Source: Ostrea edulis
Taxonomy: Eukaryota
Direction: 5' to 3'
Length of the DNA stretch: 64,000 nucleotides
NCBI RefSeq assembly: GCF_947568905.1
Contig: NC_079164.1
Span: 9,486,001-9,550,000, forward strand
Below the pieces are notes generated by a model that made no database searches, had not been told where the DNA came from, and worked only from the letters and a program-made list of their open reading frames with translations. Positions 42,939 to 63,483 of the stretch are shown here, piece by piece. Numbering within the stretch: position 1 is the stretch's first letter; each line of letters begins with the position of its first letter. Both the position numbers and the translations under genes were made by a program.

Positions 42939-43118
42939 TTAGTAATAGATGTATATGATATACAATTTAGAGCATTATTGTTTTTCGATTGTGCTGTTGA
43001 TATACAACATACGATATCTAATGTCGACAGATTCCCACACGAGCAAATCTTCATTTGTACATGCCTGTAAACTGTATGGTTTTATGCTGATAAACTGAAC
43101 TGGACTTAATATACCGAC

Positions 43119-43456
43119 AGTAGTATAAGGCGTCCCGATAGGGGGTTCAACTGAGTGCACTTTTTATGCAAATGAGGTCAAGTAAGGGTGTTTTTGATTG
43201 GTCAAGCGGTGTCGGGGTCAACGGAGTGCACTAGGACGGGGTCAACCCCAGCAGGGGTTGTAGAGCGGGTGAATAGGCTGGCCTATGGCCGCTGGTCTAT
43301 GATGCGGTACTTTCGCTTTGAGTTCCTGGAATGAGTTCCTGCTATTTTTCTGAAAATCCAGTGAAATCCTGTGTATTAAATCTAAAAGAATAACAGTGTA
43401 TTAAATCTAAAAGAATAACACAAGGTTTTAAGTTGACATGTTTATTAAAGAACAAT
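43119..43456 (+). repeat. Left terminal inverted repeat (338 bp)
   Basis: Reverse complement of 62897-63234 with no mismatch found by eye; extends 7 bp further with one mismatch; contains a 25-bp tandem duplication at 43371-43420. Confidence 0.95.
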
Positions 43457-44474: not shown

Positions 44475-44759
44475 GTCTTCTGGAAGGTGATTGAAGATCG
44501 AATGAGGACTGACACTGGGGCTCCGCTTTTATAGCCAGCAAAATGTCTAGACTATTCTGTCTCGTGAGGGGCACGTGGGGAGCACGTGGTTGCATCATCT
44601 TTTTCTGGAAAAACCGGTTTCAGCTAGAACATCGCGCGACCAGCGCGTGCTAGTGCACTAATTGAACTTGAAAAGCCGGTTTCTCGCGACCAGCGCGTGC
44701 TAGTGCACATTGGTACACATTGACTTTAGTGGAATGGAACTTATATTGGTGTTTAAAGT

Positions 44760-44775
44760 AGCCCTAAAAAGGGCT
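44760..44775 (-). terminator. Histone-type 3' stem-loop downstream of the Rep-like ORF
   Basis: Minus strand reads AC-AGCCCT-TTTT-AGGGCT-AC, 19 nt after the stop codon at 44795. Confidence 0.7.
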
Positions 44776-44794: not shown

Positions 44795-45301
44795 TTAAAA
44801 ATGGCCGGCTTCATACGCAGGTTCTTCTATATACACGTGTAAGTCATGATCTTCGGATATAATGTGTTGTACTAATTGTCGAGCTCTTCTCCCGGGGAAA
44901 CGTATCTCTTCGACGGTTTCCCACATCCAGTGTGCATCCCAAAACATTACCCATACACTTCTCCGGTAACGTGGTTTCTCCAGTCGAATAAATCCTGATA
45001 CTTTTTGAGTGCCGTTCAATAACGTGTAAAACTGGTAAATCATGTACTGTATGAGGGGGGAATTTTTCAGGTACATGTCACTTAAACGCAGGTAAATATC
45101 CTCCACTGTTTCATGTGACCGCAATACATAGTCAAAACACCAATTTTTAGATCGCCCCCAGCGTAATCGATGGCGACATCTCTGTACTAAATTGTCCCAG
45201 ATCCCCATCTCGTCTACATAATCTTCTACTATGGTTAAATTCTCCACTGGTTGTATTCCCTGGCCGCGGCGTCTCGCTCTTAAAATTCTCCGTGTATCCA
45301 T
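44795..45301 (-). CDS. Degenerate CRESS-virus Rep-like (HUH-fold) protein
   Basis: KNWCFD ... IQYMIYQ ... GTQKVSGFI ... DAHW aligns by eye with nanovirus/circovirus Rep motifs I and II; the catalytic His and Tyr appear absent. Confidence 0.55.
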   Translation of the reverse strand: MDTRRILRARRRGQGIQPVENLTIVEDYVDEMGIWDNLVQRCRHRLRWGRSKNWCFDYVLRSHETVEDIYLRLSDMYLKNSPLIQYMIYQFYTLLNGTQKVSGFIRLEKPRYRRSVWVMFWDAHWMWETVEEIRFPGRRARQLVQHIISEDHDLHVYIEEPAYEAGHF

Positions 45302-45440: not shown

Positions 45441-45773
45441 ATGGGCGGCAGTGCTACTACGAGAATAAATGGATATAGTTATGTACTACAATGTATGAAC
45501 GTGGCCTTACATAATCCTCACATTCAAAATGCTCGTCAATTTGTACAACAGATGTCACCGGAGGTCAGAAATGTACATAGTTTTCAACGGATTGCTGATT
45601 CATTAGCGGAGAATACCAATACGGGACGTTTACTCATGATTTATTTGTATGCTGAGGAATTGAAACAGAATCTTCCAGACCAGATGAGTGACATTGATCG
45701 GATCTTACGCGATTGTTTACAAAAAGGATTCGTGGAACTGATTCGTATGAAAGGAATGGCTGCCCTGTTATAA
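45441..45773 (+). CDS. Bcl-2-like small helical protein, paralog A
   Basis: FQRIADSLAENTNTGRLLMIYLYAEEL resembles a BH1 region (FxxIAxxL...NWGR); first ATG after the TATA box. Confidence 0.55.
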   Translation: MGGSATTRINGYSYVLQCMNVALHNPHIQNARQFVQQMSPEVRNVHSFQRIADSLAENTNTGRLLMIYLYAEELKQNLPDQMSDIDRILRDCLQKGFVELIRMKGMAALL

Positions 45774-45810
45774 AACAAGAACGTTTTAGAATTTTTTCAT
45801 TTTGATCATC

Positions 45811-46164
45811 ATGGCTGAATTGAACAACAACGTTCTTACCGCTGTATTACAGTATTTCGAGGACTACAAAGAATCGGTGAACAACGCTCGTAGCGCTGCA
45901 TTACAGTGTATCAAGGACTGGAAAGAAAAACAGCCGTTGAGATATAAATTCGCCATGAAGTTGTTGATCTTTTGGGAATTTCCTATGACCTTATATGAAT
46001 ATTCCAGCGTTTGCAAGCATATAGCCGACAACCTGAACAGAGAGTCTGGATTGATCATGATTTATACCATGGACCAAGAATTTAGACGACGGGAACCTGA
46101 GAAGACTGGGGCGATTGTAGCGATTACCGATCACTGGTTGGAAAAGGTGTATAAAAAAACCTAA
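45811..46164 (+). CDS. Paralog B of the small helical (Bcl-2-like) family
   Basis: Shares FPMTLxEY...LIMIY...EF...PE...I..I...WL..VY with paralogs C and D. Confidence 0.6.
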   Translation: MAELNNNVLTAVLQYFEDYKESVNNARSAALQCIKDWKEKQPLRYKFAMKLLIFWEFPMTLYEYSSVCKHIADNLNRESGLIMIYTMDQEFRRREPEKTGAIVAITDHWLEKVYKKT

Positions 46165-46192
46165 CCGTTTTCTTTTCCTTTATTCCTGGAGG

Positions 46193-46540
46193 ATGGCCAG
46201 CAGTGACAACATCGCAGAAAAAGCGCATAACCATGCATTAGAATGGGTCGAGAAAATGCAAGACGATACGGTGTTTCAAGCTGTTAAAAATTATCTGATA
46301 GCGGGGGTGTTTCCAATGACTCTGGACGAATATACAGATCTACGGAACCGGATATACATCAATCTCTATAACGATGCGGGATTGATGTTAATTTATGTTG
46401 TGGGGGAGGAATTCAAGAAACGCATGCCTGAAAAAATCGCCGAGATTGAAAGTATCACCAAGGACTGGCTTCGAGAAGTATACATAAAGTGTGAAGAACT
46501 TAATTCATTTCATTTATTCCCGGAGGATGGCCAGCAGTGA
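46193..46540 (+). CDS. Paralog C of the small helical (Bcl-2-like) family
   Basis: FPMTLDEY...GLMLIYVVGEEFKKRMPEK...WLREVY. Confidence 0.6.
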   Translation: MASSDNIAEKAHNHALEWVEKMQDDTVFQAVKNYLIAGVFPMTLDEYTDLRNRIYINLYNDAGLMLIYVVGEEFKKRMPEKIAEIESITKDWLREVYIKCEELNSFHLFPEDGQQ

Positions 46541-46832
46541 CCACATCACAGAGAAAGCGATAGTTTATGTATTGGATTATCTCACAGACATTCATTCTGG
46601 GCAGATTGAATTTGTGTTACACTATATGCGAGAAGAATTATTTCCCATCAGCTTAAAGGACTATCCATGTCTCTGTCAGTATTTGATCGAGAACCGGATC
46701 ACCCCGCAAGCCTTAGTATTGATTCATTTAATGGGCCGGGAATTGAAACGAATTCGACCCACAGACAGAGCAGAAATCGAGAAAATCAGACTACGATGTC
46801 TTCGAGAGATGTACGTCAAGTTAAACGTGTGA
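46527..46832 (+). CDS. Paralog D of the small helical (Bcl-2-like) family
   Basis: Starts MASSDHITEKA, a DNA-level copy of the paralog C start; FPISLKDY...LIHLMGREL...CLREMY. Confidence 0.6.
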   Translation: MASSDHITEKAIVYVLDYLTDIHSGQIEFVLHYMREELFPISLKDYPCLCQYLIENRITPQALVLIHLMGRELKRIRPTDRAEIEKIRLRCLREMYVKLNV

Positions 46833-47014
46833 CTTTTAATCTGGATCATAATGAAGTGTATCTGTTACCCGAAGAAGACCGGACAAGTATCTGGATGACT
46901 GTAGCCGCTGATCGATATCGATTTCAACGCAGGATTCGAGAAATGGGAAAAATGTTGGACCCTATTTTAAAAAGACATGTGCATTGGTGTTGTGTGTGGG
47001 AGTTATGTATTTGA
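46796..47014 (+). CDS. GADD34/ICP34.5/DP71L-like PP1-targeting protein (72 aa)
   Basis: KRVTF (RVxF) followed by WMTVAADRYRFQRRIREM, matching the PP1/eIF2alpha-binding module; AATAAA at 47028-47033. Confidence 0.8.
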   Translation: MSSRDVRQVKRVTFNLDHNEVYLLPEEDRTSIWMTVAADRYRFQRRIREMGKMLDPILKRHVHWCCVWELCI

Positions 47015-48360: not shown

Positions 48361-48382
48361 AAGTCGGTCCTTAGGACCAAAC

Positions 48383-48403
48383 GGCCCTTTTCAGGGCCAC
48401 CAA
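48383..48403 (+). terminator. Canonical histone mRNA 3' stem-loop
   Basis: CCAAAC-GGCCCT-TTTC-AGGGCC-ACCAA, 22 nt after the RING ORF stop; purine-rich GAAAAGA at 48411. Confidence 0.88.
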
Positions 48404-48510
48404 CTTTTTTGAAAAGACACTTTTTATGGCAAAAATCAAGAAACACACAAGTTTGTTTTAAAAAAGTTTTTATTAACACAAGTAATAGCTAGAATAAAGC
48501 TATAATAAAG

Positions 48511-49562: not shown

Positions 49563-49673
49563 GGGGGACCGAGAAGAAAAGAAGAGAAGGAGAAGAGAAG
49601 AAGAGAAGGAGAAGAAGGAGAAGAGAGAAGAGAGAAGAAGAGAAAAGACCAAGAACAGAGAGAGAAAGAAAAC

Positions 49674-49694
49674 AGCCCTTTTCAGGGCTACCCA
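49674..49694 (+). terminator. Histone-type 3' stem-loop with compensatory A-U first pair
   Basis: AAAAC-AGCCCT-TTTC-AGGGCT-ACCCA; GAAAGA at 49703-49708. Confidence 0.85.
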
Positions 49695-49792
49695 TTCTTT
49701 TTGGAAAGACATGGTTGATTACAATGACAAGAAATTTTTTTTTTTCCAACGTTTTATTAAACTCCAACTATGAACAATAACAATAACATAGT

Positions 49793-50290
49793 TTACAATA
49801 CATTCAGTCTTTGACATTGACAAGTTTGTCCTTGATGGGTTCTCGGTTTACGGAAGGTCTCTTTAAACCAATCCGCCACAAAACGATCGCGTTGTAAGGC
49901 CGTGCCTTTCCAGGGAAGTAACCATTCTCGTACGGTGCTTCTATGGCGATGGCGTTGATGTAAAAAATACACACAGTATTGTCCACAGACATCCGTATTC
50001 AAATCTTGATAACAATGGGTGTTATGAATCCAAGTCTCTCCGTGGCGTTGAATAAAGTCTTGGATGTCTTTATGGCTGGGGGGTAATCCGTAAGAATCAA
50101 AATATTCGACGGTAGGGCTACTCAAATACAAACAGACCCAATGCGCTCCAGGGCGATCGTGAGGGTCTGTATTCACCACGATGGCTTTGTGATGAGGTAA
50201 CAGCTCAGGTATGACATCTCGAGGATACACACCTGCAAACGCCGGTCCTAAATCTCGTTGTAAAACATCTCTCAATTGCTGAGTATCCAT
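49793..50290 (-). CDS. Adenain-like cysteine protease (Polinton PRO)
   Basis: NTDPHDRPGAHWV, YFDSYG, YQ...DVCGQYC (His/Asp/Gln/Cys catalytic motifs). Confidence 0.93.
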   Translation of the reverse strand: MDTQQLRDVLQRDLGPAFAGVYPRDVIPELLPHHKAIVVNTDPHDRPGAHWVCLYLSSPTVEYFDSYGLPPSHKDIQDFIQRHGETWIHNTHCYQDLNTDVCGQYCVYFLHQRHRHRSTVREWLLPWKGTALQRDRFVADWFKETFRKPRTHQGQTCQCQRLNVL

Positions 50291-50297
50291 CTCTCTC

Positions 50298-51701
50298 TTA
50301 GTAATCGATGCTGACTTCTCGTTGTTTGTTGATTTCTAGCAGATTGTCGAACACGGCATACACCACACAGTTTAAGGTCCTGGCTACGTTGGCGGCAAAT
50401 TGCACTTCCACTCTCAAGTTCCCCGTCTGTATGAGATGAAATTTATCCGTCTGGGCTTCTTGATCTTTCGTGAAATCCACACACCAGAGGGTGTAACCGT
50501 TTTTATACTCTTCTAGGGTAATGTCCGGAGCCCAGTCCTGACCTAATTTTCCCAAGCCTTTGTACAGACTCAAATACGATCTCAGGTACTGATCGTCGGT
50601 GAAATTAGGTTCCAAAGGTCGGGTTTCCATCATTTCTCCATTGATACTGATTTCTAATTTCTTGACTCTCTCATTTTGGAAATGAAAGGGGTTTCTGGTA
50701 TTATCCCCATTAAAAGCCGCATTGTCCACAAAACCCAACACGATCAGTTTAGGCATCTGTCCTTGAAACAGATGATCGGTGATTTTAGATTGGGTGCCAC
50801 TAGGAATGGTGAAGGTTTTCACTTCCACTCGTCTCAATGGATATTTCGCCGTTTGAGTACTCAGTTGCTGATTGATGAGATTAATGATACTCGGCACAGG
50901 TTTGACTTTCCTCACCCACAAGATCATACTTTGAATGACCACTTTCCCACTACTCCCGGCAGCGGTCATCATGTAGAACTGGGGTCGAGCGCGATTGAAT
51001 CTGAGACGGACATCCAAACCATTAGGGAGACATTTCTCTTGCTCAAACAAATCCAGATGTAATCGATCCATCAACACGATCTCCTTACTGTCTGTAATCT
51101 TCTCGTGACGTTTTCTCAACCCTACATTCTTGGAATCATCCGGATACTCGGGAGTCGGGATGACGGCCGCGATGCTGATTTTGTTATTCAGTACTGGAAA
51201 TTCCACAGGAGTTTGAGCCAGAGCTTCTAATTTGACCTCATCCATATGTCCTGCCGTATCTTTTTCCCACAAGCTACAGGCTCTCATCTGGGTTTCCAGA
51301 GTCTTGGGTGCATAAGACAACAATTTCTCCAGATACGCTTTGTAGGGATAAGTATCCGTCCCCGGGGTAATGACTTTTCCATTGAGACTGACATCGATTT
51401 CACTGAACAAGGAATGGAGAATGTTATTCACGGGGGTGGAGGTCGAATGGCCTCCTGCGAGATTCGTTCCATTGGCTTTCGTGAATTTACAGACCATCTG
51501 GAGATAAGTTTGGGATAAATCCAGATATTCATCTCCTTGTCCTTTGATTTCAAATTCAATCGGAGCCGTATCCGAGTTGAGGGTACTGGAAATGGGGTAA
51601 TATTCCATCCATTTCGAATCTTCTAAAGTGACGTTGGTCGGGGGCACTTTAAACAGTTCTAAACTGCTGGTACCACAAGCGCAAGATTCTCTGTGCATCA
51701 T
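50298..51701 (-). CDS. Double jelly-roll major capsid protein
   Basis: 467 aa; [52 protein letters not shown] are typical Polinton MCP motifs. Confidence 0.92.
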
Positions 51702-51780
51702 ATTGGAACGATGTGTTACTCAGCGTGAACTGGGATCAAATGTGTTCTGGTCTCCTTCTCACTCCCTTTTTATAGGGTTC

Positions 51781-52473
51781 TCAGTCGAAAATATCCAGAG
51801 AGCGTTTTGGCTTACCCCTTTTCACTAGCTTCCTACCTCCCTTCCTAGATCGCTTCCTAGGTTGCTTCCTAGGTCTCTTATGAGGCCCTCCCCGAGCTAA
51901 GATACGTTGTTTTCTTTTAACAAATCCTTTTCCTTCCTGTATTCCCACCTGTTTTCCCACCTGTTTTCTTTTGAGGGTCGTGGTTCCAGGCTTCCTGAGT
52001 ATTCCTGTGCGTGCTTTTCTTCCTCGTTTGGATGGGGCTTTTCGAGATCTTCGCCTACGGGCATACCCTGCTGTCTCTTTCAGGGCTTGGGCACCGTGTG
52101 TCTTGAGAGCGTCTTTGAGTGATCGTTTATTATCTAACACATCCATCCCTGTTTTAGCAGCAGCCTTTAAGGCACTTTTAGCCCCCGATTTGAGTAAATC
52201 GGTGAAAAATCCTTTTCCCTTCTGCTTTTCAGATTCTGGATCATATTCTTCTGTTGGATGGCTTCTACGTCGTCTCCTCCGATAAGAGCGATAAGGGCGG
52301 TCGTAATCATAATATCTCTCTTGATAGACAGGACGTTGTTGTTGTTGTTGCTGTTGTGCGGGGGCTCCACCTAATAATCCACTGATCAGGGGACCCGCCA
52401 CTTTGCTGGCTATTCCCAGCAGGGCTCCAAGCCCGTGACCCTGCTGCCGTATTAAACCTTTATGGTAGTGCAT
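51781..52473 (-). CDS. Basic virion core / membrane-active protein (pVI/pVII-like)
   Basis: Three QxGxG motifs followed by amphipathic segments; Arg/Lys-rich C-terminal half. Confidence 0.65.
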   Translation of the reverse strand: MHYHKGLIRQQGHGLGALLGIASKVAGPLISGLLGGAPAQQQQQQQRPVYQERYYDYDRPYRSYRRRRRRSHPTEEYDPESEKQKGKGFFTDLLKSGAKSALKAAAKTGMDVLDNKRSLKDALKTHGAQALKETAGYARRRRSRKAPSKRGRKARTGILRKPGTTTLKRKQVGKQVGIQEGKGFVKRKQRILARGGPHKRPRKQPRKRSRKGGRKLVKRGKPKRSLDIFD

Positions 52474-52500
52474 CTTGATGTAAATGAACTTCGTTAGGGG

Positions 52501-52644
52501 TTACACCCGCTTTTTATACTTTTTACGCCGTCTCTTTCTCTTCTTTCCTTGGCCCGCTTGACCCACAATGGCATTGGCAATCCACGGAATGAGAAACCAG
52601 ATTCCGTGTCCTTTCTGGCGTCTGACTCCTCGATGGTACTTCAT
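52501..52644 (-). CDS. 47-aa pX/mu-like core protein (below the ORF track cutoff)
   Basis: MKYHRGVRRQKGHGIWFLIPWIANAIVGQAGQGKKRKRRRKKYKKRV*; exactly fills the gap between mCP and the 230-aa gene. Confidence 0.7.
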   Translation of the reverse strand: MKYHRGVRRQKGHGIWFLIPWIANAIVGQAGQGKKRKRRRKKYKKRV

Positions 52645-52647
52645 CTT

Positions 52648-53643
52648 TCAATACACTTTGCGGAAATGAAGTTTGACTAAGGAGCGCCCATTTAAAAACC
52701 CCATAGGACGCCCTAAAGAATTCATGATGTGTACCTCAATGGTATCGAAATATTTCTTACTCAGTTTCAAATATTCGGCTCGAATCGGTTCCCAACGGGC
52801 TTGTTGTCGATCGTCGTATTGACCCGTACAGGGGACGACTCTCAATAATTTCAATTTGTTGGTGCCCACCACTTGAGGATCCACAATGTCACAATACACA
52901 TACATGGCTTTCAGATTGTCGTAGACATCCATGGTCGTGTTCCCCAAGTAATTCACGTTGATCCATTTCGTCATGGTTTCATCGCCCAGGATCATTTTGT
53001 CACTATCCAGACCTAGCTTGTACGCTAAGGGTGTAGGGAAACGAATGCACATGGGGGTGGTTCTCAGTGCTTTCCCATTAAACTGATACTCGACACGATC
53101 GTACTCGGGGTGATACACTAAGATCTGGTTGTTCCCCTCGTCGTTAGGATTCCCTAACTCACTCCATACTTTCCACAGGGTTCTCCTTAAGGCTGCGTTG
53201 ATTTCATTGATTAACGCCAAAGGTTGTGTATAAGCTCCGGGTCGGAAGTGAATGCGAATGATATCGAAGGGAAATAAACTATCCCCTCCCGCAAAGAGAT
53301 GGGACCATGGCGTCAGATCCCAGGGGACCACCACCTCACACCTGGCCATCGTGACTTTACCCATATTCTCTGTCTTAAATCTTTCCCATTTATAAGTGTT
53401 GGGATCTTGGACATGTTTCGTATACGGATCTGGAATGAGAACGTCCACATAAGCCTCGCTATCCGATACGTTTTGTAAGTTGGCCGAGTACATCATTTCG
53501 GTCAATCCGACTTCCCATGCTCCATCCGTTAAGTCCATGGTGTGTGGCAATAACGTTTTAAATTGAGCAGTCGTATTCGTCGGAAACGATTCCATCGAAC
53601 CATCACTCAACAGAGTCATGTAAAACCCTTCTCCTCCAGCCAT
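52648..53643 (-). CDS. Minor capsid (penton-like) protein
   Basis: FYMTLLSDGSMESFPTNT, WEVGLTE, MYVYCDIVDPQVVG, LLRVVP, LHFRK; TATAAATA 38 nt upstream. Confidence 0.88.
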   Translation of the reverse strand: MAGGEGFYMTLLSDGSMESFPTNTTAQFKTLLPHTMDLTDGAWEVGLTEMMYSANLQNVSDSEAYVDVLIPDPYTKHVQDPNTYKWERFKTENMGKVTMARCEVVVPWDLTPWSHLFAGGDSLFPFDIIRIHFRPGAYTQPLALINEINAALRRTLWKVWSELGNPNDEGNNQILVYHPEYDRVEYQFNGKALRTTPMCIRFPTPLAYKLGLDSDKMILGDETMTKWINVNYLGNTTMDVYDNLKAMYVYCDIVDPQVVGTNKLKLLRVVPCTGQYDDRQQARWEPIRAEYLKLSKKYFDTIEVHIMNSLGRPMGFLNGRSLVKLHFRKVY

Positions 53644-53765
53644 GATGTCTTAAATGAGCCCCTGTCTCTGTTTCCTTCTCTATTTATACACAACACCGTT
53701 TTGTTTTTTCACAATTTTTTATTTGAAACAACATACAACATAATGTTAATACACAATTTTACATG

Positions 53766-54218
53766 TCATTCTTCTTGATCGCGGCCACCACCACCCCACA
53801 TCAACGCATCCGAGTCTTCCAACTCTAGTGTTCGTCTCGGGACTAAGCGTCGTCGCATCACCAGATAGTGTCGGGTTCCCCAGCAATCGGCTACATCATA
53901 ACCTTCATTGATCATGTCTTTGAAATGTCGGAGACAGTCCTCGGAATGGTCAAACCAAGGACTCTCATTTAAGGTCCAATCGGATTCGTCTTGTCGTCCC
54001 ATCAATCCCCAGAAGGCTTTGACTTTCCAGCGAAACTCTTGATACTTGGTCTTCATGATAAAGGCTGACCATCCGTGAGGTATCAGTATACGTTTGTACA
54101 AGTACACAGGATGCGTGGACGTTTTGTGTTGTTTACAATGCATCAAACACATCTGCTTATCCGCAAACCATGCCGTTTTCTTTCCCTCTTGTTTCCAGGC
54201 GTACTGTGTGTTAGCCAT
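53766..54218 (-). CDS. Hypothetical 150-aa protein with a twofold WF-x5-CL-x-H repeat
   Basis: WFADKQMCLMH and WFDHSEDCLRH; TATAAAA 35 nt upstream. Confidence 0.6.
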   Translation of the reverse strand: MANTQYAWKQEGKKTAWFADKQMCLMHCKQHKTSTHPVYLYKRILIPHGWSAFIMKTKYQEFRWKVKAFWGLMGRQDESDWTLNESPWFDHSEDCLRHFKDMINEGYDVADCWGTRHYLVMRRRLVPRRTLELEDSDALMWGGGGRDQEE

Positions 54219-54498
54219 GGTGAACTGATGAATCTGAAGAAGATCGTTCCTGTTTTATACTCGGGCTCGCTAACGTCATTTGTGGACTAGGCATGACGTA
54301 GCCCACCAAAGAACTTAAGGTCACCATCCAAAAATCGCGATTGGGATCGCCTAAGGCTAACATGACGACCGAAGTGATAATGATGGTTAAACACAGGAAT
54401 AATTGTGCAAAATACACAATTTCTGCTCGAGGGACTTTTTCACCCAAGAAAGTCCACTGGTTGGTCATGGCCGAATGAGATCCGCTTGCGGAATCCAT
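54211..54498 (-). CDS. Small protein with two predicted TM helices
   Basis: IVYFAQLFLCLTIIITSVVMLALG and FWMVTLSSLVGYVMP. Confidence 0.65.
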   Translation of the reverse strand: MDSASGSHSAMTNQWTFLGEKVPRAEIVYFAQLFLCLTIIITSVVMLALGDPNRDFWMVTLSSLVGYVMPSPQMTLASPSIKQERSSSDSSVHHG

Positions 54499-55550
54499 GA
54501 ATCAAAACTGGGAGGATATCCTTTCCAACGCACTTTGACTTCTGAAATGACTTTTTTTCCCACACGCCGCTTTTTATACCCTAAGATTTCTTCCACTTCA
54601 TAGACATCATCGTCTTTAATCACTTGTTGTAATTCCTTCTCGTAAAACGTTCCTTCTAATTCTTCCCCGTGATCATCTTGAATACGATAGACGTTTCGTC
54701 CTGGCACTTTTCTAGAGATGGTAAACAGTTCTTTGGTCCAATTCGGTAAATATCCTTTTTCAAACGTACGTTTGGCTTTACTAATGCGTACACGATCCCC
54801 CACTTGCAAGCGACTCGTGGTATCGGCACTCTGTTTTCCATACAAGGTTTTCCATACGGTCAAGACATTCTTGGCATTGACTTGAGCAGGAGCTCGCCGG
54901 ATACTGCGATGATAGGTATGATTGTAACCATACACCAGATCCCCCAAGACATCGACATACCGTCGTGTTTTATGACGTGTAAAATACCGCCACATGCGTG
55001 CTTTCAGCGTGCGTTGAAAACGTTCCACAATACTGGCTTTGGTTTCGGCATTACGGGTCGTAAAGAAATGAATGGATTTGAAGGCTTGACGAAATTCTTT
55101 ATTGGTAAATTCTTTTCCTTGATCGGACTGAATGCGCACGGGGCGACGTCCCTCTCGAAAAATCCGTCGTAAGCCTCGTATCATTTCTTTCCCCGTTTTC
55201 TGTTTTAAAGGCACGACCCAGGCATATTTAGACAGCACGTCAATGGCACATAATAAAAACGTATACCCATTATTGTCTTGTTTCAAGCTGGAGACATCGG
55301 CTAAATCTAATTGCCATTGTTCATCCATATCCGTCACTCGTGTTTGTCGTCGCTTGAATTTCCTCCGTATCGGTTTATGCAAGGTATAGGTATCTTGAGC
55401 TTTCACCCATTCTCGAATTTGAGACAGGGTAATCTTGTGTCCTAATTGACGCACTTGACGATACAACGCCTGGACTCCCCCATACCCTGTCTTGGGATCG
55501 TAATACAGTCGCTGTAAGATCTGTTCTGCTTTCATGGTAGATTTAACCAT
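54465..55550 (-). CDS. Retroviral-type (RVE/DDE) integrase with C-terminal chromodomain
   Basis: QWQLDLAD, IQSDQGKEF, ASIVERFQRTLK; YEVEEIL...VRWKGYPPSFDSWIP. Confidence 0.95.
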   Translation of the reverse strand: MVKSTMKAEQILQRLYYDPKTGYGGVQALYRQVRQLGHKITLSQIREWVKAQDTYTLHKPIRRKFKRRQTRVTDMDEQWQLDLADVSSLKQDNNGYTFLLCAIDVLSKYAWVVPLKQKTGKEMIRGLRRIFREGRRPVRIQSDQGKEFTNKEFRQAFKSIHFFTTRNAETKASIVERFQRTLKARMWRYFTRHKTRRYVDVLGDLVYGYNHTYHRSIRRAPAQVNAKNVLTVWKTLYGKQSADTTSRLQVGDRVRISKAKRTFEKGYLPNWTKELFTISRKVPGRNVYRIQDDHGEELEGTFYEKELQQVIKDDDVYEVEEILGYKKRRVGKKVISEVKVRWKGYPPSFDSWIPQADLIRP

Positions 55551-56299
55551 TTTCCAATTTCACGTGATGTCTTTTTACTGGCCTCCCAGATATTTTTAGG
55601 GGTCATCATTCGTCTGGGAGTTTCATAGAACGATTGGTCAAAACCAGAGATTTCTTGAAATCCGCTCTCCTCTTCCTCTAGAGGTCTAGGCGTACTGATT
55701 TTCCCTGGTTTGTCCATGGCTTTTATAACATCCCGATTGTTCACATATCCTTTGGGAGCATGAGTCTCTTTTAACGCTTGAGCAAATTCCTCTAATCCCG
55801 CGGGGGGATCACGATGTCTTAAGGGTCTTTGTCGTTGGGCTTCGGTCATTAAATCCACAATATTGGAATCGGGAACCCTACGTCCTCTATAGCTGATTTC
55901 TCCTTCTTTATTCCAAGTCACCACTTTGGATTTCTTGAGATGATCGAGTAATAAACCTGCTTTCTTTCGACCCGGTTTATTGACGCTTTTGATAATCTGT
56001 TCCTCCAAGTCATCGGATGCTGAGGCGGCTGTGGGTGTTGAGGCGGCACTGGTTGCAGTGGTTGGGGAGGATAGAGTCGCTGGGGTGGGATGTCGAGCTT
56101 GTTGTAAATATTGACGATAGCGATGAAGTTGATGACCGTACAACCCCACTTTTTCTTTCTCGGTTAAATCATCTCGATGTTCAATCTCGTCCAAATCACT
56201 GCGTAAACCAATAGTCGAGGTAAATTCGGGAGGTTTAGGTAATTTGCCTTTTAATTCGTTGAGCATCGCTTCCGGTACCAATACCATTTTTCGACTCAT
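55532..56299 (-). CDS. Conserved Polinton-type protein of unknown function
   Basis: MSRKMVLVP start and WNKEGEISYRG..VPDSNIVDL motif; overlaps both neighbours. Confidence 0.7.
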   Translation of the reverse strand: MSRKMVLVPEAMLNELKGKLPKPPEFTSTIGLRSDLDEIEHRDDLTEKEKVGLYGHQLHRYRQYLQQARHPTPATLSSPTTATSAASTPTAASASDDLEEQIIKSVNKPGRKKAGLLLDHLKKSKVVTWNKEGEISYRGRRVPDSNIVDLMTEAQRQRPLRHRDPPAGLEEFAQALKETHAPKGYVNNRDVIKAMDKPGKISTPRPLEEEESGFQEISGFDQSFYETPRRMMTPKNIWEASKKTSREIGKWLNLP

Positions 56300-56625
56300 G
56301 ATTTCTTACAAATCTTGCCACACACAAACGAACCCAATCCTTTTTGGTGGATGAGTATACCTCGTCGTTTTTTCACGGGTTGAGTCCGGACTAAGCGTCT
56401 TAAGATGTGTTTCTTTCGACCCAGTTGTCGCTTCTGAGTAGGATTGAGAGGAATCACCCCTTTTAATAGATTGTACACAATCTCACAAATCTTTAAAATG
56501 CAGTCATTGGAACAATGTTTCAACACCTCTGTCTTTAATTTGCTGGAATAGTGAGGAGCCGCTAACGTCTGCAAGAGCGGTAAATGAGGGCGTAATCGAC
56601 ATTCACACTTCTTCGTATGAGCCAT
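56296..56625 (-). CDS. Basic Polinton-type core protein (109 aa)
   Basis: ICEIVYNLLKGVIPL...KRRGILIHQKGLG; similar to the N-terminal part of the 302-aa ORF; TATAAAA 33 nt upstream. Confidence 0.7.
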   Translation of the reverse strand: MAHTKKCECRLRPHLPLLQTLAAPHYSSKLKTEVLKHCSNDCILKICEIVYNLLKGVIPLNPTQKRQLGRKKHILRRLVRTQPVKKRRGILIHQKGLGSFVCGKICKKS

Positions 56626-56665
56626 GGTAATGAAGGGTGGGGTCCCTTACCCCTCCTTTTTATAC

Positions 56666-57574
56666 CTAGTCCAGGACAATGGCACTCGGATGTTTAGGAT
56701 CAAAACGCTTGTGATGGACGGTCTCTTCGTGACGATTGCGGTTCTCTCTCGCATTGAAGACCAGAGGGCAAAATTTACATTTATATTTCTTTTGCACCTG
56801 AACCGGTGTTGAGGTGGTTAAGGGTTGAAATTTCATGCTTCCAAAGGTATGAGCAAAACTCGGTAGAGCAGTATCACTGGTTCTGGAACTTCCTATAGGC
56901 CCATGCATGGGTCGTTCCATTTTCTTTTGAGCTAATCCGGCTTTCAGATTGGCTAACGTTTTAGTGGCCTTGGGGGGAGTGGCCTTGGGAAACGGCATCT
57001 TCACAATGAGAGGGGTTTTCTTTGGAGCCCAATTGGGAAACGGATTCTTCATCCTGAGAGGTGTCTTCTTAGGGGATTTCTTAGGGGACTTCTTAGGTGT
57101 CTTCTTAGGTAAGCGAATAATGAGTTTAGGAATTCTCTGAGGTGATTTTTTAGCTTTCTTAGCCCGTGGTTTCTTGGTTTTCTTGGGTTGTCCCCCACGG
57201 GGCTTACGGCCTGTTTCCCATTTGAATAAATGACGGATAATGGTCCCTCCTAAGAATCCGGCGCCTCCTCGTTTCAAAATGGCTTTTTTACGCTCTTCTT
57301 CATTGGACTTCTTATCGGCAATGACACTCAAGTCTTGGCGATGGGATTGAATGAACCGCTGAGTGATTTTATTGCCTGGTAAGACGCCTCGCAATAAATT
57401 TCGAGCGCCCATCGCAAACCAGTTGAGTAAGGCTCTACGTCCTAATTCAATGAGATGGCTCCGTTGAACGGGATCCCGTTCCCGTTGTAAACGGCGTAAC
57501 GTTTTGACTAATTTACTCTTCGCGGAAGGTCTACCCATGATGAAGACTGTCTTTCGAATGATACACCTGCCCAT
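56666..57574 (-). CDS. Basic protein with H1-like SPKK/TPKK repeats and a C2H2 finger (start may be the ATG at 57538)
   Basis: KKTPKKSPKKSPKKTP; YKCKFCPLVFNARENRNRHEETVH; TATA at 57592-57585 favours 57538. Confidence 0.75.
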   Translation of the reverse strand: MGRCIIRKTVFIMGRPSAKSKLVKTLRRLQRERDPVQRSHLIELGRRALLNWFAMGARNLLRGVLPGNKITQRFIQSHRQDLSVIADKKSNEEERKKAILKRGGAGFLGGTIIRHLFKWETGRKPRGGQPKKTKKPRAKKAKKSPQRIPKLIIRLPKKTPKKSPKKSPKKTPLRMKNPFPNWAPKKTPLIVKMPFPKATPPKATKTLANLKAGLAQKKMERPMHGPIGSSRTSDTALPSFAHTFGSMKFQPLTTSTPVQVQKKYKCKFCPLVFNARENRNRHEETVHHKRFDPKHPSAIVLD

Positions 57575-57587
57575 GATGTGACATTAT

Positions 57588-58241
57588 TTATACTCTCGGG
57601 GGCATGTGCACAGCCAAGTTGGTAAAGAGTTGACTTCTTAATCTTAAATCGTCCGACGTCTGAGGACTCAAGTCCACTAGTAAATACCCGTGAGGTACAC
57701 GGGTGGCGTCCTCATAGGCTGGAAGTAAATGCGGCATTTGTAATTGCCGACTTAACACCCCAATCTGAGATTTATCTCGAGGATTTTTAAACAGCACAAG
57801 ATAGTGAGCATTCAGACTGATGGTACGATGTTGTACTGCTCGATCAAACAGATTTTGTGTGATATAAATGACACTGGTATTGCGATGATGCGCTTTGCGC
57901 GTAAACCAGTCGACAATCGATTCGATGGCTTTACCTCCCATCATATCATCAAAAATGAGTAGATGACGCGTACTGAGATCCGCCACTATCTGCTCATCGT
58001 CTTGAGGTATATTGCGGATAAAAGTGACCTTGTCCTGTAAGGATTCGTACGCGGACTGCCATTCTCGATAACACCATACTATCTTTTCGGGAGGCGGTGC
58101 AATCCACTGTGTATTTTGCACCAGTTGCTTGACAAATTCTGTTTTACCCGATTTAGAGGGTCCAGCCACCACCATGGTAAATTCATGTTTCAACTGAAAA
58201 GGTTCAAGTGTCTCGTAGGTATACATCTTGATAAATGACAC
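57588..58241 (-). CDS. A32/FtsK-type genome packaging ATPase
   Basis: Walker A GPSKSGKT, Walker B LLIFDD, RKAHHRNTSVIYITQN. Confidence 0.93.
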   Translation of the reverse strand: MSFIKMYTYETLEPFQLKHEFTMVVAGPSKSGKTEFVKQLVQNTQWIAPPPEKIVWCYREWQSAYESLQDKVTFIRNIPQDDEQIVADLSTRHLLIFDDMMGGKAIESIVDWFTRKAHHRNTSVIYITQNLFDRAVQHRTISLNAHYLVLFKNPRDKSQIGVLSRQLQMPHLLPAYEDATRVPHGYLLVDLSPQTSDDLRLRSQLFTNLAVHMPPRV

Positions 58242-58266
58242 AAGTTCATGGGATCATACATATTTA

Positions 58267-58794
58267 TTAACAAATAAAAATACGTACAGCTTGCTCAACA
58301 CTATGTCTACAAATAGGACATTGTTTCAGTCCCGTAGCACATATAGCACAAGTACATAAATGACCACAAGGTAAAAAAGCAATTCTCAAGTCTCGTTCTA
58401 AACAAATGTGACATTTCTGGGTACACATTGGATTCCCTGCCGCGTCTAAGGGTAAGCCTTCCCAATCGCAACCACTGTCTTTAGCGCGGGCATAGGCATT
58501 GAAGGCTTGTCGTACCCATTGTTTACCCTTATTACACTTCAGGTAAGGACAGTGAGGATACCAATAAGCATGTTGTATCCAAGGATTGTCGACAGCTCCC
58601 CAATGGTGAAGTCCAAAGTTGCAATAAAAACAGCACGTGTTATCCCCGTACCCTTTGTAAAAGTATCCCGCTTCTGCAATGGTAGGTAATAGGTTCTGCA
58701 AGTGTTCGGGAGCATTTTCAAACGACGTTACTCGATCTGACAGTAGAGCATAACGTGGTGTACCCGGGTTATGTAGTGATTCGTAGTCCGTCAT
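58267..58794 (-). CDS. Inhibitor of apoptosis protein (one BIR plus RING)
   Basis: DRVTSF...AEAGYFY...CCFYC...W...DNPWIQHAYWYPHCPY (BIR); CHICLERDLRIAFLPCGHLCTCAICA...CPICR (RING). Confidence 0.92.
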   Translation of the reverse strand: MTDYESLHNPGTPRYALLSDRVTSFENAPEHLQNLLPTIAEAGYFYKGYGDNTCCFYCNFGLHHWGAVDNPWIQHAYWYPHCPYLKCNKGKQWVRQAFNAYARAKDSGCDWEGLPLDAAGNPMCTQKCHICLERDLRIAFLPCGHLCTCAICATGLKQCPICRHSVEQAVRIFIC

Positions 58795-58829
58795 TTTGCC
58801 GACTGATGGTTTTCTCTAGCATGTCCTTT

Positions 58830-61800
58830 TTAATACCCGTAAGGCAGCGTGTCATAGTTATGAATACGTTGACGTTTATCATACACCATGCGGTATTTCT
58901 TCACCAGAGGAATGGTTCGCACATCATGTTGGCGGGTTCGTTGAATAAAGTGCGGATAGCTGACATGGACTTCTTCTTCTTCTCCTTTTAACATTTTTTC
59001 CAACGTATCGAGAGACACGACTCTAGAGGCACGATAATTGAGTGTCAATCCTTTGACTTTGCAGACAGATTTTTCCCCCTGGGTCTCGTATGCATAATTT
59101 TTGGGCCCGCCCGACATGTACTTGATGATACGATCTCCACCCAATTCATCGGTCCAGCCGCCTAAACTGTTGATAATGGTCGGATTGAACTGGGTCTCGT
59201 CGTGCTGATAGATGATACTATCCGTGTCAAAGTATAAGACACGCTCTCCCAAAGGCTGTAACGTCTCGTACAAATGTAAACGAGCATGAGCTGTTGTAAA
59301 ACACGCCAGCACCACGTTTCCAAAGGGACAGTCTTCTAAAAATTCTTCTTTCTCCTGATAATTGATCAGCATCATATCACATTCGGGGCGTTCACGATTT
59401 TCTAAGAGTTCGATGCCTTTGACTTCTAAAGTGGCATCTTGTAATTTCTGTTGTAATTCTTCTTCTTCCGTGAGATACAGGGATTTGGGTAATTGTAATC
59501 GTTGAGCAAATTTTCCCCACAAACAATTTAAAAAGAGTTTGGCAATGGTTCTTCGGACCGGATTTTTCTGGATGTCTGCCGGATTCATGGCAATGCCTTC
59601 TCGTTGCTGAATTTCCTCAATGTAATGTTGCTGCTGTTGGGCTGTTTGACAATCCTCGGGGAATCCGGAAGCTTCTTGTTTAATTTTCAAAAAGGTGTTG
59701 ATATACGCTCGAAATAAGTGGTCACTGGTTTTCTCAAAATGCCAAACTTCGTAAATGCGGTCGAGACGATAGCCTAGATCTAATGCTTTGTGAAGTTCGG
59801 TGGTCACCCAGGTGCCCGTGAGACTGCGTTCAGAATCGGTGTGCTGGCACCGCTCGTCGGGTCCTAAGTTGCGCTGTTCCGCACAGGTGCGGCATAAGGG
59901 AAAGAGTAATTTACCCCCGGTCTTGTAAGGTAATACGGGGTGATACAGCTCTCGGGGTGGGAGGACACGACAACGAATGAGCCCGAAATAGTCTCTGACA
60001 TCGGTGAAATGGCTGGTGATGACTTGGGGATGTTGGACGGGAAATGGCTTGTATTTCAACACGTACGGGTACAGGGAACAGACATCCACGTATCGCATGT
60101 CACCCTCCTCACAATACAGTCGTGTAGCATTGGTCCGGCCTCCGTACAAAGCGTCACGGGGATTCAAAGGATCTTGTATATCGACTCCTTGTAAAAATTC
60201 CTGTAAGTCGGGATTGGTCTGGGTCTGACGATCAAACTCGTGTTCCCATATGCTCACGACTGTATAGCCTTGGTCTTCTAAAGCACTGGCTCGTTTTAAG
60301 GTGTCCAGGTAGAGGTCTTGATACGTATGCTGAACACGATGAGGATGCATGTCAGTCAACAGATTCGGGAAACAGGTGGGACAGCCGTGCCAGTAACAGC
60401 CATAGAATTCGTACACGATACGAGATTCCTCATCATACCCATCTACTGTATAGGGTCCAAGCGTGACTTCGCCCCCATTTCTAGCATGTCGTATGCAGTG
60501 ATGTTGATGTTCTAGCCAGGCGAACCATCGACAAGCTTTAGCTGAATATCGTCGTGCTGGCCGGTAGCCCATATTGGGAATGATGGCGATGGTATTTTCA
60601 ACCATGAATCCTCGTCGGTAGGCTAAATTAGCCGTGCTGGCAAACGTGATGGATTCTTGAAAGGGGTCTACTTCCACCAGATCAAACAGGGTGGACTTGA
60701 AATGGGCACAACACCGGCGTAAAATATCCACATCCGAGATGCAGTAAGCTAAGAATTCTTTCTGGAAATCAAAGACTTTGCCCTCTTGTTGATGGTACCA
60801 AGTATAGAAGGCTTCACGATTGGCGGTGGACATATCGTCAGGATTGTAGAAATGAGCGGCCGGGTAAGGACCCACATACTGCTGGTTCTCTGTCGTGTTG
60901 AAAAAGTGCGGGAAATATCCTTTTTTCAATTCCGTTAATCCGAAAGCAGAGGGCATCTTGGCAAGAGCAAAGGGTAGAAAGTTGTAAGAATCGATGAATC
61001 TCAACCCCAAGACTTGCATGGATAAGATTTTACTGCCGTTCAGGATGACGGTGGGTTTGATACACGCCGTGTGAACCAGGTAATTCAAAATAAACTGCCC
61101 ATCGTATCCTTTGAAATTGTGGGCAATGATGGTGGCTTCATCGTGTTTGAGTTCCACATGGCCTTGCTCATCGGTCTCGCTCTGTAAGAGCCATTCCATA
61201 AACTGTTTTAACGTGTCGGGTCCTTGAAATAGGAAGCGGCGTTGTGATCCGAATCCTTCACAATGAGAACAGGGCTTGTCGATATCCACACTGTCGCAAT
61301 GTTGACACACACGTTCTGCCACGCATAAATTGGGAATGTGAATACCGTTTTCCTGACTGCATTCGAAATCGTAATAAATGTATATTTTCAACTCCTCTTC
61401 TTCTTCTTTTTCTTTCTTAGGTTTGGGTTTCGTCTGTACAAAGCAGTGATGAGGCATGGTGACGACTTTGTGACAGATGCGGCATTCGGTTTGACCCCCA
61501 CACGCGTGGCGTTTTAATAATTTCTTGGACATCCATTTCTGACACTGGTTACAACGCCCCATTAAACTGCAGACCGTGGTCGTTGTATTACTGCTGTAGG
61601 GTTTTAAATGGTTCTGGTAACAAGCTGCATTTCTGAAAAATCCCTTACAATGAGGGCAATTCGTCTGAGTCCCGTCCGGGGTACAGGGGGTATCGGCTAA
61701 ACAAAATGAGCATCGATGAGGACAGACGGTCCGATGATCTTCAATGTGACTGTAACCAACATCGCAATAATCGCAATAGTATCCGTTTTCCGTCACTCCA

Positions 61801-62792
61801 GGCATAGACACAATGGCATCGTAATGCTCGTTATCCAGCAGGATATTCAAACAAGTCCCGTACCCCGGTCCTTTGTAAATAGGTTCCAGTCGTAAACGAG
61901 TTGTATTCGTTTTGAATTGAAATATTTTCAATCGATACTGTGGGGCGAGCGCGTGCTGTAATTGCTCCCATTCACGTGGCCCACACGGCTGGTTCATAAC
62001 ACACCCAGCTTGTTCCATCAAGGCTATCGCTTCTCGTTTCTGATCGAGAGAATCTTTATCCCCTTTTCTCATGCGTAACCATTTCGTTTCCCATGCCGGG
62101 TCGTTTGATTTCTGGCTGTGTAGACGTGCTACCACAATAGCCCGGGACAAGCAGAGAGAATCCTCAGGATTTTGAATGCGAACGATCGCTCTCTTGGAGG
62201 TTTTGAATTTTTCCTTATCCACGTGTAGATGTTTTTTCTTAGTGCACCCGCTGCCTTGTGGATATTTGACATGGAAAAAATCCATCTGCACTGCCCCGTC
62301 GGTGATTAGGAATTCCTTTTTAGATTGCTGGACGGATTCTATTTTGTTCAGAATTTTGTCCTCGTTGAGCTGATTGGACTGCGTAAATTCGTACCAAATA
62401 GCTGAATCCAGAGACGGGTGCCGAATATTTAAACGTAGATAATCATTGGGATTGCACTGCATTTCCTGTTTCACATTTTTTAACATATCCCGGAAGAGCC
62501 GACGAATGAAGGCTGTATTTTCTTTCTCTGGAATAGGTTTGAAAGCAACATTGTAGACATTTTCCTTGACTTTAAATTTCCGTGATTGACGTCCTCGTTC
62601 CAGTTGAATTTTGTAATAATCCGAAATGAGTTTCTTTTTTCCCCCTCCCCGCTGTAAATACTGTAGTCGTCGTTGATTCTCTCTGCGGAGTTGTAATTCA
62701 CGCTGCCGTTGTCTGTTCAGCTGATCATTCAAAAATCTCAATCGCTGTTCAATATAACTCCGTGGAAGTCCAGTAGGTAACTTGTCTGACAT
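58830..62792 (-). CDS. Protein-primed family B DNA polymerase with N-terminal TP/OTU-like/Zn regions and a Vsr-like insertion
   Basis: ExoI YYDFEC, ExoII AHNFKGYD, YVDVCSLYP, KLFLNCLWGKF, YFDTDS. First ATG at 62792 (the ORF track starts at a TTG, 62813); TATA ~40 nt upstream. Confidence 0.97.
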   Translation of the reverse strand: MSDKLPTGLPRSYIEQRLRFLNDQLNRQRQRELQLRRENQRRLQYLQRGGGKKKLISDYYKIQLERGRQSRKFKVKENVYNVAFKPIPEKENTAFIRRLFRDMLKNVKQEMQCNPNDYLRLNIRHPSLDSAIWYEFTQSNQLNEDKILNKIESVQQSKKEFLITDGAVQMDFFHVKYPQGSGCTKKKHLHVDKEKFKTSKRAIVRIQNPEDSLCLSRAIVVARLHSQKSNDPAWETKWLRMRKGDKDSLDQKREAIALMEQAGCVMNQPCGPREWEQLQHALAPQYRLKIFQFKTNTTRLRLEPIYKGPGYGTCLNILLDNEHYDAIVSMPGVTENGYYCDYCDVGYSHIEDHRTVCPHRCSFCLADTPCTPDGTQTNCPHCKGFFRNAACYQNHLKPYSSNTTTTVCSLMGRCNQCQKWMSKKLLKRHACGGQTECRICHKVVTMPHHCFVQTKPKPKKEKEEEEELKIYIYYDFECSQENGIHIPNLCVAERVCQHCDSVDIDKPCSHCEGFGSQRRFLFQGPDTLKQFMEWLLQSETDEQGHVELKHDEATIIAHNFKGYDGQFILNYLVHTACIKPTVILNGSKILSMQVLGLRFIDSYNFLPFALAKMPSAFGLTELKKGYFPHFFNTTENQQYVGPYPAAHFYNPDDMSTANREAFYTWYHQQEGKVFDFQKEFLAYCISDVDILRRCCAHFKSTLFDLVEVDPFQESITFASTANLAYRRGFMVENTIAIIPNMGYRPARRYSAKACRWFAWLEHQHHCIRHARNGGEVTLGPYTVDGYDEESRIVYEFYGCYWHGCPTCFPNLLTDMHPHRVQHTYQDLYLDTLKRASALEDQGYTVVSIWEHEFDRQTQTNPDLQEFLQGVDIQDPLNPRDALYGGRTNATRLYCEEGDMRYVDVCSLYPYVLKYKPFPVQHPQVITSHFTDVRDYFGLIRCRVLPPRELYHPVLPYKTGGKLLFPLCRTCAEQRNLGPDERCQHTDSERSLTGTWVTTELHKALDLGYRLDRIYEVWHFEKTSDHLFRAYINTFLKIKQEASGFPEDCQTAQQQQHYIEEIQQREGIAMNPADIQKNPVRRTIAKLFLNCLWGKFAQRLQLPKSLYLTEEEELQQKLQDATLEVKGIELLENRERPECDMMLINYQEKEEFLEDCPFGNVVLACFTTAHARLHLYETLQPLGERVLYFDTDSIIYQHDETQFNPTIINSLGGWTDELGGDRIIKYMSGGPKNYAYETQGEKSVCKVKGLTLNYRASRVVSLDTLEKMLKGEEEEVHVSYPHFIQRTRQHDVRTIPLVKKYRMVYDKRQRIHNYDTLPYGY

Positions 62793-62896: not shown

Positions 62897-63234
62897 ATTG
62901 TTCTTTAATAAACATGTCAACTTAAAACCTTGTGTTATTCTTTTAGATTTAATACACTGTTATTCTTTTAGATTTAATACACAGGATTTCACTGGATTTT
63001 CAGAAAAATAGCAGGAACTCATTCCAGGAACTCAAAGCGAAAGTACCGCATCATAGACCAGCGGCCATAGGCCAGCCTATTCACCCGCTCTACAACCCCT
63101 GCTGGGGTTGACCCCGTCCTAGTGCACTCCGTTGACCCCGACACCGCTTGACCAATCAAAAACACCCTTACTTGACCTCATTTGCATAAAAAGTGCACTC
63201 AGTTGAACCCCCTATCGGGACGCCTTATACTACT
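62897..63234 (-). repeat. Right terminal inverted repeat (338 bp)
   Basis: Reverse complement of 43119-43456. Confidence 0.95.
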
Positions 63235-63483
63235 ACCGACGTATCAAGCACGTGGAACCAGGATGCTGATCCTTCACTTTTTTGACAACGTTCATTTTCA
63301 AAAATTATTATTTTCATACACAAACTAAGTTAATTTCACATGTGAAATAAGATTAATTGGCGGATTGGCCCCCATATCCCATTCTCTTTGGTGATAGTAA
63401 TGAATGGTAAAAATGTAATAATGAATGAACTGATGGATTGAAGAACAAACGAAGCCCCCTCGCTCCAATTTATAGGAGTAAGA

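Follow-up and report, generated by a model that had tools for sequence, protein, structure and literature searches.

A Polinton in the Ostrea edulis genome carries a Rep HUH domain of CRESS-virus type with replaced catalytic residues

Introduction

In the Rep protein of PCV2, the metal ion is bound by Glu48, His57 and Gln59, the DNA is cut by Tyr96 and the reaction is assisted by Lys99, as described in bioRxiv 2020.09.01.278671; the motif I Thr of Reps is reported to position the metal ligands (PMC8780604). HUH domains that have lost catalysis are described as the origin-binding domains of polyoma- and papillomaviruses (PMC6668415, PMC13595969), and in RepB, AAV5 Rep and E1 the helix following an HUH strand is reported to bind dsDNA at a distance from the active site (PMC9943647). 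HUH genes are also described in Mriyaviruses, some PLVs and adomaviruses, in each case as replication genes (bioRxiv 2026.06.19.733378, 2026.10.13.758929, PMC11071296), and the CressRep entries among those listed in the supplement all belong to adoma- or parvoviruses (22 of 22). In the text passages and searchable supplements covered, those of PMC8502044 and PMC11071296 among them, we found no Polinton described as carrying a dead Rep domain that stands alone.

The gene described here, HUH1, lies in a 64,000-nucleotide stretch of Ostrea edulis contig NC_079164.1 (the window). The original prediction, made from the letters alone, was that it encodes a catalytically dead Rep domain captured by a Polinton from a CRESS DNA virus.

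Results

The element that carries HUH1

The carrier is indeed a Polinton, intact and 20.1 kb long, at window positions 43119–63234. Its main features are as follows.

43119–43456, plus strand: left terminal inverted repeat (TIR), 338 bp, perfect, starting AGTAGT
62897–63234, minus strand: right terminal inverted repeat
43113–43118 and 63235–63240: 6-bp target duplication, ACCGAC
49793–62792, minus strand: Polinton core, with the protease, a putative major and a probable minor capsid, the rve integrase and its chromodomain, the A32 ATPase, the IAP and the protein-primed PolB

Pfam matches identify PolB (PF03175, E 2e-57), the rve integrase (PF00665, E 2e-11), the ATPase (PF04665) and the IAP, with the protease falling just under the cut-off; a Bcl-2-like and a zinc-knuckle gene are also named by Pfam. 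The capsid ORFs have no Pfam match, and we take them to be the major and probable minor capsid genes from their size and position.

Four small paralogous genes stand in tandem at 45441–46832 (plus strand). The first has a weak Bcl-2 match and, in many copies of subfamilies B and C (see below), an internal stop against the window query. An ORF with a PP1-binding (GADD34/ICP34.5-type) Pfam match, at 46667–47014 (plus strand), overlaps the last Bcl-2-like gene. Elements of subfamily C have a 167-aa ORF that looks macrodomain-like by eye and has no Pfam match (L232:5891–6391, L235:6009–6509). A family of derivatives of ∼10 kb with the same termini (L272/L273, L282, L284, L289) carries PolB, intact in three, together with the ATPase and a 180-aa zinc-finger-like ORF; there was no capsid, integrase or HUH match within the stretches examined. 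Further elements with the same termini (L274–L277, L279, L280) are 14–17 kb long and likely non-autonomous; the parts examined contain neither a long ORF nor a match to any Polinton gene.

HUH1 is related to CRESS-virus Rep proteins

HUH1 is placed on the minus strand between the left terminal repeat and the Bcl-2-like genes. All features below are on that strand.

44795–45301: HUH1 ORF, 168 aa, subfamily A, a probably nuclease-dead Rep HUH protein
44843–45160: HUH domain, residues 48–153, strand-helix-strand-strand-helix-strand-helix (from the model and Foldseek)
45128–45148: motif I, KNWCFDY, with Asp/Glu for the CRESS Rep Thr in 15/15 family rows
45026–45028: Tyr92, standing where Reps have the metal-binding Glu (joint alignment and genome copies)
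44990–45010: motif II, TQKVSGF, with Lys100 for His and Ser102 for Gln (alignment)
44960–44986: basic patch RLEKPRYRR, where the helix that follows the HUH strand begins, a candidate dsDNA-binding surface
44849–44866: motif III position, HIISED, with His146 for the catalytic Tyr and Ser149 for Lys (alignment)
45182–45238: N-terminal segment, acidic and amphipathic, with a basic, NLS-like stretch after it; the putative role is considered in the Discussion

Profile, fold and alignment tests all support the descent of this protein from the HUH domain of a CRESS-virus Rep. Relatives collected from the genome and from protein databases (at most 19 proteins, all unnamed) gave a 26-row alignment. When this family was compared by hhalign with 47 environmental CRESS Rep domains, the match scored 95.4% with an E-value of 2e-8 over 95 columns that include motifs I–III. 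The predicted match to Pfam PF02407 came out only in part: this is the sole Pfam family matched by HUH1, but at 16 bits against a cut-off of 26 (E 0.015), and it was the profile–profile comparison that was positive. Of 919 viral stretches, the family profile picked up 27 Rep stretches and one other at 5 bits or more; of 64 reversed Reps it picked up none. A CRESS profile put the HUH1 ORF first among the 705 reading frames of the window, with an E-value of only 0.016. A search of representative proteins gave 11 matches, five of which are long repeat proteins and were dismissed as noise; a sequence search of the PDB with the HUH1 protein and two profiles returned no Rep, only kinesin and TetR noise.

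A model of residues 28–164 built from family rows only was of moderate quality (pLDDT 67.5, pTM 0.57); a full-length model from 10 sequences reached a pLDDT of 38. With the former, Foldseek ranks 1–8 in the PDB are all circovirus or nanovirus Reps (E 3.5e-4 to 3.1e-3), as had been anticipated for a true HUH fold, and a viral set yielded 166 matches at E ≤ 0.001, with Reps making up all the named rows among the top 50. In VIA-align the Reps score Z 7.0–7.4, level with unrelated ferredoxin-like folds, and this method alone therefore adds nothing. Atlas feature matches to Cressdnaviricota clusters were 0.93 for the relative P0004 and 0.80 for HUH1 itself. The DNA-binding domain of papillomavirus E1 is also among the structure and feature matches, both in VIA-align (1R9W, Z 6.7) and in Atlas.

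The phylogeny singles out neither a nanovirus nor a mollusc virus as the donor: the 15 family rows come out as a single clade on a long branch, outside the 62 CRESS rows, in a sample that the search pattern used to assemble it had biased. No relative of HUH1 was found in viral contigs or in a metagenome scan, the best plasmid match had an E-value of 9, and no endogenous CRESS Rep scored above the cut-off in this genome. Two candidate relatives, L035 and L231, were rejected as chance matches in other frames.

The motifs on which the prediction was based are all present: KNWCFD at residues 52–57, IQYMIYQFYTLLNGTQKVSGFI at 84–105 and DAHW at 122–125. The reported lack of an SF3 helicase also stands, with the ORF stopping 15–20 aa past the nuclease domain. 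A whole-genome profile search for the PF00910 helicase gave 0 matches, a weak search through 7994 candidates found no longer, fused relative, and there is no oligomerisation domain in the HUH1 ORF. The basic patch has 4–8 Lys/Arg per 13 residues in 17/17 rows that hold it; R106, K109 and R111 are invariant in 15/15 family rows, and so is Arg139. The N-terminal segment has 4–8 acidic residues in 18/19 rows, and acidic-aromatic motifs are conserved at both termini of the family.

The catalytic residues are replaced

To compare active sites we used a joint alignment of the rows that were long enough, 15 of 26 from the family and 62 of 64 from CRESS Reps; in the latter, His and Gln were set by the search pattern, and Glu, Tyr and Lys were free of it. 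The metal triad Glu/His/Gln reads Tyr92/Lys100/Ser102 in 15/15 family rows. The metal-binding Glu is present in 62/62 CRESS rows and is Tyr in all 15 of ours, and the Tyr/Lys/Ser combination is kept in 91/91 genome copies without a frameshift. The exchange of the HxQ His for Lys, noted originally, thus holds in every copy checked.

At the catalytic Tyr position, the 15 family rows have Ala (8), Tyr (6) or His (1). In the genome, His is found in the window copy of subfamily A and mostly Ala in B and C; YxxK is retained in 6/15 family rows, all of them metagenomic. Because relatives P0004/P0021/P0024–P0031 keep YITK alongside a dead motif II, the alignment of motif III is fixed, and HIIS (residues 146–149) occupies its place in the window copy, from which YxxK had correctly been called missing. 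This distribution suggests that the metal site was lost before the catalytic YxxK. The loss goes further than was first claimed, since Glu, His, Gln, the motif I Thr and the catalytic Tyr and Lys are all replaced, and HUH1 is probably unable to nick DNA. His124 is kept in 6/15 family rows, and the strand matching PCV2 residues 79–86, which bridges ssDNA, is variable. A search of the element for a nonanucleotide hairpin origin gave 8 loose motif matches, and no good hairpin holds any of them at a terminus or between genes; the best stem is 7 bp long and lies inside the MCP gene.

HUH1 copies are under purifying selection

The 895-Mb genome holds 146 matches to HUH1 among 150 scored candidates, and 82 copies, 93–100% identical, are full-length and free of stops. 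The copies fall into three subfamilies, A, B and C, ∼45% identical to each other. HUH1 has a fixed position, adjoining the zinc-knuckle gene in 14/14 divergent loci and standing head-to-head with the first Bcl-2-like gene in 12/14. Intact copies make up 60/60 of A, 23/29 of C and 5/14 of B, counted over 103 distinct top-scoring loci and hence biased towards intact genes.

Variants seen in a single copy behave neutrally (pN/pS 1.7 in A, 0.8 in C and 1.1 in B). Those common to at least two copies are depleted of replacements, with 20 nonsynonymous and 19 synonymous changes in A (pN/pS 0.39, p=0.003) and 7 and 8 in C (pN/pS 0.30, p=0.02), and in A the two classes of variant differ (Fisher p=0.007). 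The HUH1 protein has therefore been selected during element replication. Between one copy each of A, B and C, omega is 0.31 (2dlnL 36 against omega=1); over the whole tree it is 0.41 in A, 0.56 in C and 0.98 in B, compared with 0.46 for the neighbouring Bcl-2-like gene. The value of about 1 in B belongs to a subfamily whose copies are mostly old and broken. Purifying selection within and between subfamilies thus supports the earlier proposal that the domain has been exapted.

Divergence between subfamilies is greater for HUH1 (∼45% identity) than for MCP (85–88%), integrase (84–89%) or PolB (75–81%). Four of the elements examined have no HUH1, as two pairs with shared junctions: in L281 and L286 the gene is gone and one flanking repeat remains, and L278 and L287 have a common deletion junction. 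HUH1 is therefore dispensable in cis, and it is possible that such elements are supplied in trans.

Stem-loops, repeats and a terminal motif

Three kinds of sequence element were considered beside the gene and in the termini.

44760–44775, minus strand: histone-type 3' stem-loop after HUH1 (Rfam RF00032)
44632–44708, no strand assigned: two 27-bp direct repeats downstream of HUH1
43145–43159, plus strand: TIR core motif, 15 bp, present again at 43214–43232, a candidate protein-binding site

The histone-type stem-loop noted originally lies 20 nt past the HUH1 stop and scores 22.3 bits (E 0.036) against RF00032, whose gathering score is 34. It follows the gene in 59/60 A, 19/29 C and 0/14 B copies, and RF00032 scores 40.2 and 30.8 bits at two other genes of the element. 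Histone-type 3' stem-loops also occur at window positions 48378–48423 and 49669–49714 (plus strand), after a RING gene and a 98-aa ORF.

The 27-bp repeat lies on either side of HUH1 in subfamily C. A and C have one repeat in common, the A copy L193 has another, and no co-variation between HUH1 protein type and flanking repeat was seen. Enhancer-like tandem repeats beside HUH1 vary by lineage, lying upstream in L021, L025 and L032 and downstream in L193. Repeats of subfamily B contain GCGCGAAA, which we take to be an E2F-like site. GTGCAC is not in excess in the window (13 occurrences, 9.2 by chance).

The TIR core motif matches 391 element ends, with none in a reversed control, and is kept across subfamilies whose TIRs otherwise differ (L233, L234, L236, L237, L241). 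C-type TIRs have two AGGTCA half sites, two bases apart, which to us resemble a nuclear-receptor element; with such half sites in the motif, a host factor, the integrase or PolB could therefore bind there.

A second Rep-like gene with lost catalytic residues

B and C elements have a 110-aa ORF just after the protease, HUH2, that is not in the window copy (L232:4564–4893, L235:4703–5032, L238:9075–9404, L240:223–552). The CRESS profile ranked it first among 8706 reading frames of the collected loci. In profile–profile comparison HUH2 scores 95.0% (E 3.5e-8) against CRESS Reps and only 0.6% against the HUH1 family. It is without the His, the Gln and the motif III Lys, and the alignment of its Tyr is ambiguous. 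The genome contains 57 matches, and inspection of both match lists found no HUH2 within 8 kb of an A-type HUH1 copy. Across 30 copies, shared variants comprise 20 nonsynonymous and 20 synonymous changes (pN/pS 0.36, p=0.001), as against 0.9 for singletons. The simplest reading of these sequences is that HUH1 and HUH2 are two separate captures. A quick tree joins their long branches (support 86, unstarred), and the two may therefore go back to an old duplication despite the nil profile similarity.

Discussion

Our preferred reading, which we hold at about even strength, is that HUH1 is a nuclear dsDNA-binding regulator of its element, derived from a CRESS Rep HUH domain whose catalytic residues were replaced and maintained by purifying selection. 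What favours it is the conserved basic helix, taken together with the precedent of RepB, AAV5 Rep and E1 and with the inactivated HUH domains that bind origins; the acidic helix and the NLS-like stretch agree with it as well. We infer that the dsDNA-binding helix of those proteins corresponds to HUH1 residues 109–122. The start of this helix, conserved and basic, would touch dsDNA in the manner of its counterparts in RepB, AAV Rep and papillomavirus E1, and Lys100, with Asp/Glu57, would fill the vacant metal pocket. The acidic helix at the N terminus would attract factors of the host or of the element. In subfamilies A and C, expression would be coupled to S phase through the histone-type 3' end. 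The protein may target the TIR core motif, as a replication origin, or else the enhancer-like repeats next to HUH1. Some observations sit badly with a regulator: HUH1 diverges faster than the core genes, a pace that suits a protein facing the host better than one that binds a conserved origin; the type of protein does not follow the neighbouring repeats; and the gene is dispensable in cis.

That divergence, as quick as in the neighbouring accessory genes, is what one would expect if the dead fold were a scaffold for binding a host protein of innate immunity, the cell cycle or the DNA-damage response. HUH1 lies in the accessory arm, head-to-head with the Bcl-2-like cluster and in the company of PP1-binding, RING and IAP genes, its N- and C-terminal acidic-aromatic motifs are conserved, and a second dead Rep domain was recruited as well. 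Such an effector is nonetheless rather unlikely in our view, given the invariant basic residues on a nucleic-acid-binding fold, the lack of an LxCxE motif in HUH1 and the lack of a known partner. An arms race would also account for rapid change, and a CRESS Rep descendant, in a lineage with two dead Rep genes, could occupy the origin of a co-infecting ssDNA virus, or its iterons, without cutting them and so block the viral Rep; such viruses might be satellites that exploit the Polinton. The dominant-negative action originally proposed is, however, weakened: HUH1 has no oligomerisation or helicase domain with which to poison a Rep hexamer, the strand that bridges ssDNA varies between family members, the metal site that holds the scissile phosphate is lost, and the genome yields no endogenous CRESS Rep above the cut-off. 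We consider this role improbable, and less likely than that of a dsDNA-binding regulator.

The invariance of Tyr92, Lys100, Ser102 and Arg106, and the YITK kept by relatives P0004/P0021/P0024–P0031, might point to a nicking site made up of Tyr92 and Lys100 that works without metal. We regard a rewired enzyme as very improbable, since no HUH protein is known to function once the metal triad is lost (PMC8780604), none of the three genome subfamilies keeps the motif III Tyr, which is replaced by His or Ala, and the element, without a nonanucleotide hairpin origin, has a PolB that makes rolling-circle initiation unnecessary. Least credible of all is that HUH1 is a decaying passenger without function or merely a chance ferredoxin-like fold. 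The single-sequence evidence is weak, as seen in the Pfam match below cut-off, the PDB sequence search without a Rep and the tied VIA-align scores, and some elements do without the gene; but motifs I–III align with those of Reps in order and spacing, which argues against a chance fold, and the selection tests within and between subfamilies largely refute decay. A broader proposal, that one Polinton lineage captured and disarmed a CRESS nicking domain twice, for its own DNA-binding regulators or for decoys against ssDNA viruses, with a YxxK-keeping intermediate surviving in relatives, is one that we put forward only tentatively.

Comparison with known systems

HUH1 is closest to the circovirus and nanovirus Reps (PF02407; PDB 7KIJ, 6H8O, 6WDZ), with which it shares the fold, the order and spacing of motifs I–III, WCF, GT-x-x-x-x-G[FY] and the basic stretch after motif II. 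Where they carry the metal triad, the motif I Thr and the catalytic Tyr and Lys, HUH1 has other residues. It also has no oligomerisation or SF3 helicase domain, and the element on which it resides is linear dsDNA that encodes a PolB and lacks a hairpin origin. The origin-binding domains of polyomavirus large T and papillomavirus E1 are likewise described as HUH folds without catalysis (PMC6668415, PMC13595969). Those domains, as portrayed there, are fused to an active SF3 helicase, belong to the core replicase and have lost all three motifs, whereas HUH1 is stand-alone, accessory and still recognisable by sequence.

Among dsDNA viruses, the aviadenovirus homolog of parvovirus Rep offers a parallel, in that a linear dsDNA virus with a protein-primed PolB took up a piece of an ssDNA-virus Rep (PMC13172254). 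By that account the aviadenovirus kept the SF3 helicase part and lost the HUH domain; the Polinton did the reverse, from a CRESS-type donor. Rep-like HUH domains are also reported in small and midsize dsDNA viruses, namely Mriyaviruses, the Zoravirus group, Gulliviroviridae PLVs and CressRep adomaviruses, but the descriptions consulted present none of them as a dead accessory gene of an animal Polinton with PolB and integrase. The element otherwise resembles the animal Polintons/Mavericks, or adintoviruses, in its PolB, rve-chromo integrase, ATPase, protease, putative capsid, IAP and Bcl-2-like genes, TIRs and 6-bp TSD (PMC8502044); the text and searchable supplement of that paper name no HUH or Rep accessory gene.

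Polyoma- and papillomaviruses supply the only known case of an inactivated Rep HUH nuclease turned DNA-binding module, an ancient one in which the motifs are no longer visible. HUH1 and HUH2 appear to record the same change recently enough for it to be read residue by residue, in two separate stand-alone genes, in a different virus realm and with graded relatives. They document gene flow from ssDNA viruses to animal Polintons and, as small and easily expressed proteins, could be used to probe both the function of dead HUH domains and the regulation of Polinton origins and promoters. If the domain was in fact captured and disarmed twice, these genes would be a living replay of the step behind the polyoma- and papillomavirus origin-binding domain.
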